Positions 2,194-4,737 of a stretch of DNA of 43,719 bases are shown here, one piece after another. The notes below the pieces were generated by a model, which was not told where the DNA came from, did no database searches, and saw only the letters and a program-made list of their open reading frames with translations. Source of the stretch: a virus. Its lineage: Duplodnaviria > Heunggongvirae > Uroviricota > Caudoviricetes. The DNA is taken from IMG/VR virus record IMGVR_UViG_2660238269_000008. One strand, 5' to 3'. Position 1 is the first letter of the stretch. Every line of letters starts with the position of its first letter. A program made the position numbers and the translations under genes.

Positions 2194-4737
2194 TTAAAAA
2201 TCAGCCTGATTCGGGAACAGTTTTTGCCAGATAGCTGAAACGTATTTTGCCTGGTAACGGGCGTCATCAAGTGCATTATGGCGCTCACCTTCGAATGGAA
2301 TAGCCGTTCTGGCATCGAAGTCTATGGCTTTCCCCAGCTCAACGATTGTGCGTACATCGCGATCGTTGTAGTAACGCCACGGGCAGGGGATCCCCTGCCG
2401 TTCGTATGAACGGCGCAAAATCGTGTTGTCGAAGTTGGCTCCATTTCCCCAGACCTGAACAAAAAATTCACCGGAGTTTTCGTCGATAAATTCCCGCAAT
2501 TGTAACAGTGCATCATCTAACGGGATTTCATCGGTCATAATGGCAGATTGCGCTTCGCGTGATTGCTTAAGCCACCATTTAATGGTGTCCCGATCAATGA
2601 CTCCGCCAGCAGTTTCCAGATCGATAGTCTTACTAAATTCCGGTCCCATATCTCCGGTTTGCGGATCGAAAAATATTGCACCTATTGAGATGATCGGGGC
2701 ATCAGGATTTTTTCCCATGGTTTCAAGGTCGATCATTAGATGGTCACACGTCCTGCTGGTGGATGTGATTTCACGATGACCGTTCACCTTAATTAAGAGA
2801 TTGGCTGTCTCGCCTGTTTCATTATTGCCATTGGCATGTTGATCGCCTTCGGTGCACTCCTTGTTCGGGAGTCCGGCACTTTCCATTTCCTCCGGATCTT
2901 TTTCCCGGGCTTCATCCTGGCTTTCTTCGTTGAATGTCTCCTGGTATGTTGCGTCGCCCATCACCGCGCCACAGTCAGGACAGTTGCCGCCGCCGGTCTG
3001 ACCGCAGGCTGTGCAGACTTTTTCCGGTTCCTGTTGCGCTACTGGTTCAGGCTGTTTCGTTTCTGGCTCGTTTTGTTGCGCATTTGGACTGTGTTGTTCC
3101 GCTTTATGGCCTTTCTGTTCCGTTTCTTGCTGGTTATGGTTCACCGAATCGCGGGTTTCAATCCCCTTCACCCATTTTGGATCATTCGGGTCGCTAATCC
3201 CTTCAACAAATTCTCCGTGAGAAGCAGCCAGTAATTTATCTGCATCGACAGGATTTTTGGGTGGAATGTTTTTCCTGGCTTCATAGAGTTCTGCACGCAG
3301 TTTCTGATATTTCGCATCAACAGAATTTATCTGTGGCTGAGCATCCATCGACTGCGTGTCCTGATTATGTTCAGTTGTATCCGGTTCCACTGCTTCAGTC
3401 GTTGCCTGTTCATCTGCCATTGCGCCAGATGGCTGCGGTTTTTCTTCATCATCCTGTTTTCCTTCTTTTGTTACACGCTGCGGGATAGGGGCAGAGGAGC
3501 GACCGCAGGCAATATCCACGATTTCCGGATAAGGGTTGGCATGATCGGTTTCGGTCAGTACTTTGTTCAGATATTCGGTAACACGGTGGGGAGTAGCCTC
3601 GATACCAATTGGTGCTTCTTTCACGGACGCAACTACTATCGCGCGGGAATAATCCAGGTGACCAGGCATGGCGATGAATTTGTCACGAAAAACAGAAAAG
3701 GGCGGCTTATTCTCTGAAACGATTTCTTCAATGCGTTTGGCGTGTGCCGGATGTGGATTGTAAATATCGATGTCCATTGAACGGGCCAGAACGCCAGCGG
3801 CAACGTCACGTTCCACTGACGCATCATCGTGGACAAAACCTTCACCGCGATCGGTAAGAATTCCTCCGCCAGCATTAGCGCCGGACGGGGTGCGATTGAT
3901 TTCAGATACGCAATTTCCCTTTGCCCACTCTTTTGTCAACAGCCCCTGATCAAGGTAGTCAGTCTTCATCCAGGTGGAAATGAACTTGTCGAATTCTGCC
4001 GGGCTGATACGGCGTGTTGTTGCGTGAGTGAATGCCTTTTCCACCGAATGCGCCAGTCTTCCAAGATGATGGTTTGTCAGCTTATCCAGCTCAGGATGCG
4101 AACGTACTGCAGTAAGCAGGCTCTGTATGTTTCCATCTTCCATATCCATTTCGATGCGGATCACGTCCTTGCGTTGTTCTGGTGTGGCGTGATGTTTGTA
4201 TTTCTCGTCGAACTCCTGACCAAAGAAGTAGAGGTGCAGGAAGCGATGGGTAAGACTCAGGGTGGAGACGGGGATTTCACATTCAGGGCAGTCATCGTTG
4301 CTGTCCGGGGATTCGCTTTTATCTGCGTTCTCTGTCTGAGAGTCACTTTGTTCATCGCAGTCACGGCTGACACCTGTAACAGCTTCGCCGCTGGTATTGT
4401 CAGTGCTGGCTGGTTTGTCCTGAACTGAGGGGGAAGGCGCTATAAATATCATTGTGATGCCATCTTCTCCGCCTTTTTCATAGCGGTTGCAGAATTCGGT
4501 ATCAAACACACCTTCAGGCGGCAGGTCATTAACAATGGGCAAATTCACGCGAACAGGTTTTTTGAAATCCTCTTCGTCAAATCCAGCATCGTCCATTGCG
4601 ACAACACCCCGTGATATTGCAACCGATAATTTTTTTGCTGTGCGCCAGTAAAAACCGCCTTTAATCCCAAGGCGTTTTCTGACTTTGTCATTTTTGGCTT
4701 CGTAATACAGTGCAATTTCTTCTTTATCAGTGCTCAT
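2194..4737 (-). CDS. Large early-left exonuclease: RecE (exonuclease VIII)-like N-terminal two-thirds joined to a DnaQ/DEDD-type 3'-5' exonuclease C-terminal domain
   Basis: 847-aa ORF; central part recalls Rac RecE ([39 protein letters not shown]); C-terminal 190 aa has DEDDh-like motifs ([18 protein letters not shown]). Confidence 0.7.

Follow-up and report, generated by a model that had tools for sequence, protein, structure and literature searches.

RecE of the Rac prophage (b1350 of Escherichia coli K-12) has a large N-terminal region, whose function has been unexplained for decades, and a C-terminal 5′-3′ nuclease domain of the PD-(D/E)XK type (PF12684, about residues 592-866). Its gene lies in the early-left part of the prophage, upstream of xis and int, and is followed by recT. 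DexA of phage T4 (PDB 8KEL/8KEN) is a stand-alone protein of 227 amino acid residues (aa) with additional loops; it is annotated as a 3′-5′ DNA exonuclease and was treated as such in PMC12153337. Here I describe a gene in which counterparts of the RecE N-terminal region and of DexA are joined. The gene occupies positions 2194-4737 of a 43,719-nucleotide (nt) stretch of virus DNA (IMG/VR record IMGVR_UViG_2660238269_000008), the whole of which is called the window below. Its product is an 847-aa protein, to which all residue numbers refer. In this protein the non-catalytic region of RecE, including a CxxC...CxxC motif, is followed by a DEDDh exonuclease domain in the place of the RecE nuclease. 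The early-left location upstream of xis and int is also shared with Rac, while no recT gene lies next to the fusion gene.

A RecE-like module joined to a DEDDh exonuclease domain

The open reading frame (ORF) is intact, starts with ATG and has a GAGG motif 8 nt 5′ of the start codon. The same coding sequence is present in a prophage of E. coli 2011C-3911, where its RefSeq entry is named "exonuclease". The parts of the gene are listed here with their window coordinates.

2194..4737, minus strand: whole ORF, RecE-like N-terminal module fused to a DEDDh exonuclease (847 aa; WP_000102188.1)
2791..4737, minus strand: residues 1-649, homologue of RecE 1-591, the non-catalytic region of the Rac protein (NF007259, BLASTP)
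4150..4572, minus strand: residues 56-196, partial match to PF06630 (Exonuc_VIII; Pfam, E 1.1e-12)
3463..4290, minus strand: residues 150-425, conserved all-alpha core of the RecE-like module, confidently predicted (predicted local distance difference test, pLDDT, 93)
2971..3015, minus strand: residues 575-589, putative zinc ribbon CxxC-x7-CxxC in an acidic linker (weak DZR match)
2743..2790, minus strand: residues 650-665, junction linker between the RecE homology and the DEDDh domain (Pfam, BLASTP)
2227..2742, minus strand: residues 666-837, DEDDh 3′-5′ exonuclease domain of PF16473 (Rv2179c/DexA-like; Pfam, E 2e-67)

The C-terminal domain covers positions 2-177 of the 177 positions of the PF16473 profile, and its score of 226.7 bits is above the cutoff of 27, while the RNase_T family (PF00929) stays below its threshold (21.2 bits against 24). 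A first-pass annotation of the sequence had called this domain DnaQ-type, a name that is correct for the superfamily; as to the family, it is PF16473 and not PF00929. The same annotation had set the domain apart from the PD-(D/E)XK nuclease of RecE, and the domain search agrees with it: PF12684 matches Rac RecE (E 4e-28) but not the 847-aa protein, whose C-terminus was not assigned to the RecE nuclease family. The closest solved structure by sequence, and the sole one detected, is that of T4 DexA (PDB 8KEL, E 1.5e-6), with an identity of 28-32%. In alignments with DexA and two stand-alone prophage homologues, all of the DEDDh residues (D670, E672, D770, H820, and D825) are present, and the five are kept in 13 of the 14 complete fused representatives of 50%-identity clusters. 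Judging from the Pfam match, the PDB sequence match, and these alignments, the C-terminal domain belongs to the Rv2179c/T4 DexA family of DEDDh exonucleases and looks active. Its polarity would be 3′-5′, as expected from the domain family.

Closer relatives of the domain than DexA exist as stand-alone PF16473 exonucleases in Escherichia phages PhiR55_1 (190 aa) and PhiR46_1 (199 aa), which share 53-60% identity with it; the PhiR55_1 gene is located in the block of early genes on the cI side. The window protein differs from all of these in carrying a 650-aa N-terminal module. The stand-alone enzymes have a Trp at the position of DexA W152, where the window protein has a Tyr (Y790). D742 aligns with DexA D90, the Asp that is involved in tetramer formation and whose loss marks the HREX/EcD exonucleases discussed below, and is followed by A743; at this point the alignment could be shifted by one residue.

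As for the N-terminal part, residues 1-649 match positions 1-602 of the 877-position NCBIfam equivalog model of RecE (NF007259), and nothing further matches. The score, 871.9 bits, is below the curated cutoff of 1269 bits, and by this model the protein is not a RecE equivalog. In a BLASTP comparison with K-12 Rac RecE, residues 58-649 align with RecE residues 50-591 (56% identity over 593 aligned columns), with visibly much higher identity from about residue 259 on, and no similarity to RecE 592-866 was found. Since the homology ends at RecE residue 591, the domains were swapped near the point where the nuclease domain of RecE begins. The resemblance to the non-catalytic region of RecE, which had been noticed for the central part of the protein, is therefore a true homology but is not limited to the centre; it begins at the N-terminus. 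The CxxC-x7-CxxC motif in common with Rac RecE is present in 7 of 81 long representatives of the family (see below). For the model of the all-alpha core, no structural relative was found in the PDB or BFVD. A single-sequence AlphaFold prediction of the full protein gave a pLDDT of 33.7.

Operon position, lack of a linked annealase gene, and proposed function

The gene belongs to the early-left operon of a lambdoid prophage, in the order dicB, ydfD, fusion gene, xis, and int. This is because a ydfD-like gene and dicB lie upstream in the same direction, and it agrees with the early-left position first ascribed to the gene. The neighbouring genes are as follows.

1863..2132, minus strand: excisionase gene (xis), directly downstream, taking the place that recT has in Rac
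4830..5024, minus strand: DUF1482 gene, ydfD-like, upstream and co-directional
5015..5203, minus strand: dicB, upstream and co-directional

The first 8 kb of the window is 100% identical to the E. coli 2011C-3911 prophage except for an insertion of about 775 bp. The annotated order in that prophage is integrase, excisionase, exonuclease, DUF1482, and dicB, and then a cI-like repressor, cro, and ydaT. A promoter scan of the region returned sites no more commonly than in shuffled sequence, and there is thus no evidence for independent expression of the fusion gene.

The stop codon of the fusion gene ends at 2194 and xis begins at 2132. In the SynExo recombinases (RecET and Red exo/bet) the gene of a single-strand annealing protein is expected to be adjacent; here the adjacent gene is xis. 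The annotation of the identical 45-kb prophage by the NCBI Prokaryotic Genome Annotation Pipeline (PGAP) contains no RecT, Bet, Erf, or Rad52 protein, and when the early ORFs without a name and several larger ORFs of the right operon were scanned with PHROG and Pfam, none matched these four. The absence of a recT- or bet-like gene, claimed at first for the immediate neighbourhood, thus extends through the window as covered by these searches, and re-annotation brought no annealase gene to light nearby.

Is the lack of an annealase gene common among related loci? The arrangement dicB-ydfD-exonuclease-xis-int without recT was found in the window, in phage Tritos, in four E. coli genomes (UTI89, JCM5491, 32A22CPO009, and TW10598) at three attachment sites, and in three distant fused relatives. 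In the annealase-free loci, small genes of the kil or dicB type precede the fusion. In this small sample of about 10 contexts with a fused DEDDh domain and 3 with a RecE-type nuclease, the former pass straight to xis and int, whereas the latter have an intervening gene. It is recT after Rac RecE and after the RecE-nuclease relative P0163, while in another such relative (P0134) a 271-aa ORF, which has no RecT similarity and no Pfam match, stands between the nuclease gene and xis-int. The earlier suggestion that the protein may serve a role other than RecET/Red-type recombination is consistent with this difference.

From these results, I propose that the product is a modular DNA-end-processing enzyme expressed from the lambdoid early-left operon. 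The N-terminal part of about 650 residues, consisting of the all-alpha core and long acidic linkers, one of which has the putative zinc ribbon, would target or scaffold the protein at DNA ends or at recombination or replication intermediates. The last 180 or so residues, the DEDDh domain, would remove nucleotides from 3′ ends. In this way the DEDDh domain would stand in for the 5′-3′ PD-(D/E)XK nuclease of RecE, having been swapped at the interdomain linker, and the most likely activity would be a DexA-like trimming or degradation of the 3′ ends of DNA, or possibly of RNA. Because of the presumed 3′-5′ polarity and the lack of an annealase, the protein should not be a two-component recombinase of the RecET/Red type. 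Overall, a DexA-like 3′-end trimming or degrading enzyme, which is brought by its N-terminal module to DNA ends in early lytic growth and does not act as a two-component recombinase, has a probability of roughly 0.55 in my estimation. I infer the polarity and the DNA substrate from the family, and the many recombination-related partners of the N-terminal module suggest its targeting role.

Several points speak against this proposal. First, one fused relative (P0153; L012 5001-7259) has two substitutions in the DEDDh residues, E to K and D to A. This means that catalysis is not always retained in the fused family, and P0153 is probably an inactive variant kept at the same operon position. Second, the N-terminal module has no known function (PMC11611040), and no structural analogue of it was found, so that its targeting role is deduced from the fusion partners only. 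Third, no published functional or biochemical study of the fused form was found in the literature. Finally, the substrate may be RNA. The founding member of PF16473 is an exoribonuclease, on whose domain the family was defined according to the Pfam description, and PGAP often names members 3′-5′ exoribonuclease. The protein might then be an RNA-directed 3′-5′ exoribonuclease whose targets would be transcripts of the host or the phage, or small RNA or oligonucleotide signals. However, DexA, the closest solved and characterized phage relative, is a DNA exonuclease, and it is with DNA recombination proteins that the N-terminal module is associated elsewhere; an RNA-directed role therefore seems quite improbable to me.

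The kinship with DexA also raises the question of phage exclusion. An E. coli homologue of DexA, EcD, is reported to digest T4 DNA and to protect cells (PMC12153337). If the window protein were a prophage defence or exclusion nuclease of this HREX/EcD type, its DEDDh domain would selectively degrade the modified DNA, such as that containing 5-hydroxymethylcytosine (5hmC), of superinfecting T-even phages. It fits that the C-terminal domain is a homologue of DexA at the identity given above, that EcD and the present C-terminal family are both DexA-family exonucleases encoded in E. coli, and that the gene is prophage-borne and very widespread. On the other hand, EcD is a different protein as judged from its primer-encoded ends, and the window protein does not keep the residues by which DexA is proposed to recognize 5hmC: W152 of DexA corresponds to Y790, and D169 is in an insertion that only DexA has. 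Expression in a lysogen is not expected from an early-left operon under repressor control in which promoter-like sites are at the level of shuffled sequence, and PADLOC gives only a weak and generic DEDDh match. I regard such a defence role as unlikely, slightly less so than the RNA-directed one.

The cloning primers of EcD indicate a protein that starts with MIDTET... and ends with ...TIPETY, compared with LMIDLETMG... and ...PNQADF for the window protein. A 20-mer scan of genome contigs for EcD matched only an unrelated metagenome-assembled genome of Acetatifactor.

Two further observations were made in this operon. An IS1 insertion sequence at about 805-1572 of the window splits the prophage integrase gene (window 1-1894, minus strand). 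Its terminal repeat GGTGATGCTGCCAACTTACTGAT was found at 805-827, the target duplication is GTAGCTGCA, and ORFs resembling insA and insB lie at 860-1135 and 1054-1536. As the integrase gene is uninterrupted in the otherwise identical prophage of E. coli 2011C-3911, the copy in the window is probably locked in the chromosome. Concerning dicB, the gene is present, yet no DicF small RNA (sRNA) reaching the Rfam gathering score was found upstream of it (window 5203-5732), while dicF is annotated at the corresponding place in K-12 Qin and in phage Tritos.

Partners of the RecE-like module

When residues 1-650 were compared with representatives clustered at 50% identity, 224 matches were obtained, and the 81 of at least 450 aa were classified by local phmmer. 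About 20 of the 81 have a RecE-type nuclease as the tail, about 16 have a DEDDh domain, and 2 have RecT. Another nine carry a conserved tail of about 270 aa, and the rest have no recognizable tail. In the two RecT fusions (P0124, 703 aa; P0219, 615 aa), the RecE-like module is fused directly to RecT and the nuclease domain is missing.

The tail of about 270 aa always has Rad52_Rad22 as its best Pfam match, below the threshold (E 0.013-0.17). An hhalign comparison with an N-terminal sequence of human RAD52 gave a collinear alignment of weak significance (E 0.018, probability 2.6%), and a PDB profile search with this putative Rad52-like tail gave nothing significant. A Sipho_Gp157/Mu-Gam-like gene follows, and at each of the three loci studied its beginning is overlapped by the gene with this tail. 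The three loci are as follows.

L015, 5001-7996: protein P0145 with the tail of about 270 aa
L020, 5001-7717: protein P0201, likewise
L022, 5001-7921: protein P0210, likewise

These proteins may be annealase fusions, and the assignment to Rad52 is to be read as a lead and not as a result.

It was also found that the same two modules occur as separate genes. At two loci (L013 4176-7151 and L014 4183-7292), a PF16473 exonuclease gene (193 and 190 aa, respectively) lies upstream and is followed by an 80-aa ORF and then by the gene of a RecE-like protein that lacks a nuclease (716 and 763 aa). DUF1627 and/or DUF977 come after the RecE-like gene, and the integrase is of a different type. The pair of the RecE-like module and PF16473 recurs both fused and split, which argues for a functional link between the two and against a chance fusion. 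Shigella phage 75/02 Stx has a RecE-like member without a nuclease, located before gam, recT, and a yqaJ exo gene.

These partners bear on another possible role, that of an accessory factor which processes or tethers ends in homologous recombination, where it would work with RecA/RecFOR of the host or with an annealase that another prophage provides in trans. Nearly all of the contexts in which the N-terminal module occurs have to do with recombination, namely the RecE nuclease, RecT, the sub-threshold Rad52_Rad22 tail, and the neighbouring gam-recT-yqaJ exo genes, and the window does contain RusA. Nevertheless, a 3′-5′ exonuclease would destroy the 3′ tails that annealases and RecA need, and a linked annealase was seen in none of the fused contexts examined. 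I consider an accessory role in recombination unlikely, though it deserves to be kept in mind, and continue to favour the 3′-end trimming or degrading enzyme.

A wider reading of the partner list can be offered tentatively. The RecE-type module (Exonuc_VIII/YdfE_N plus YdfE_C) could be a hub domain of new structure that serves phages in the metabolism of DNA ends by recruiting effectors which can replace one another, and the DEDDh-fused form would then represent an end-processing pathway independent of an annealase. The effectors may include a 5′-3′ nuclease, a 3′-5′ nuclease either fused or encoded nearby, RecT, and possibly a Rad52-like annealase. I hold this to be possible but doubtful. If it is true, the binding partner of the module would explain the N-terminal two thirds of RecE; the catalogue of partners and the confident model of a new fold are testable leads to the role of that region.

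Mosaic origin, abundance, and other features of the window

The exonuclease of phage Tritos (823 aa; L006 4045-6516) has no PF06630 match. In the DEDDh segment it hardly differs from the window gene (proportion of synonymous differences, pS, 0.016), while saturation has been reached in the N-terminal parts. In K-12, the ydfE pseudogene of the Qin prophage (L028 4079-4999) was found to be the N-terminus of a Tritos-type fusion, truncated by IS2, with 99% identity. The Tritos and ydfE genes share the operon position of the window gene (dicB-ydfD-gene-xis/int), but their N-terminal 250 or so residues are unrelated to those of the window protein. Thus, the DEDDh module has been joined to at least two N-terminal versions, which is ordinary lambdoid mosaicism. 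K-12 YdfE was also considered as a counterpart of the N-terminus of the window protein and was rejected, as there is no BLASTP similarity between them; it belongs to the Tritos-type variant. Nothing about a function of YdfE was found in the literature.

The fusion is not a one-off. A protein search gave at least 8000 matches, and in all of the 120 matches listed the precomputed architecture is PF06630 plus PF16473. The names given to the matches listed are exonuclease, 3′-5′ exoribonuclease, or, wrongly, exodeoxyribonuclease VIII. At the DNA level, 4078 of 5426 complete E. coli genomes, or about three quarters, contain the junction together with the DEDDh domain, in as many as 7 copies per genome and mostly at 95-99% identity, and 4069 complete E. 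coli genomes have an intact ORF at a coverage of at least 80%. DNA of the Rac-type nuclease was found in 1736 of the 5426. Hence, among the RecE-like genes of E. coli, the DEDDh chimera is the commonest form and occurs in more than twice as many complete genomes as true RecE. As for the PF16473 domain alone, 1287 phage records contain it, in most cases as a protein of its own. The architecture has thus been catalogued already and is ordinary, and what is presented here is its correct reading and not a discovery. That reading has a practical side. The label "exodeoxyribonuclease VIII", which is still frequent in databases, implies a RecE-like 5′-3′ recombination nuclease and is wrong for the window gene. 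Because the DEDDh form outnumbers true RecE, the recombination capacity of prophages is overestimated from annotation.

Could the gene be a functionless by-product of lambdoid mosaic recombination that is merely carried along between dicB and xis? The gene is a mosaic, as the comparison with Tritos indicates, K-12 Qin retains only the IS2-truncated ydfE, and the integrase of the window prophage itself is split by IS1. Against this, long intact ORFs persist in thousands of genomes, and the catalytic residues are conserved across the 50%-identity representatives. The pairwise dN/dS ratio (Nei-Gojobori method, where synonymous sites are unsaturated) is below 1, at about 0.33-0.38 for the N-terminal tail, the core, and the linker, and the same pair of modules also exists as separate neighbouring genes. 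A gene without function is therefore very improbable.

Some features outside the early-left operon were also recorded. A toxin-antitoxin pair of the hok/sok type lies at 12267-12591 in the nin-like region and is composed of sok (12267-12441, Rfam) and a hokD-like coding sequence (12436-12591). The late-regulatory region (16956-24173) has a layout typical of Stx-type phages, with no toxin genes annotated there. It contains a DNA methyltransferase gene, tRNA-Ile and tRNA-Arg genes (18055-18213), a TolA-like ORF, an AraC-type regulator gene (19619-20344), and a SASA-family esterase gene (22209-24173), after which comes a holin gene. Between the Q/methylase/tRNA region and the esterase gene, five copies of the sRNA STnc100 were found on the plus strand, at 19030-19242, 21002-21197, 21261-21470, 21532-21730, and 21792-21981; four of them stand in tandem in a stretch that is unannotated in RefSeq.

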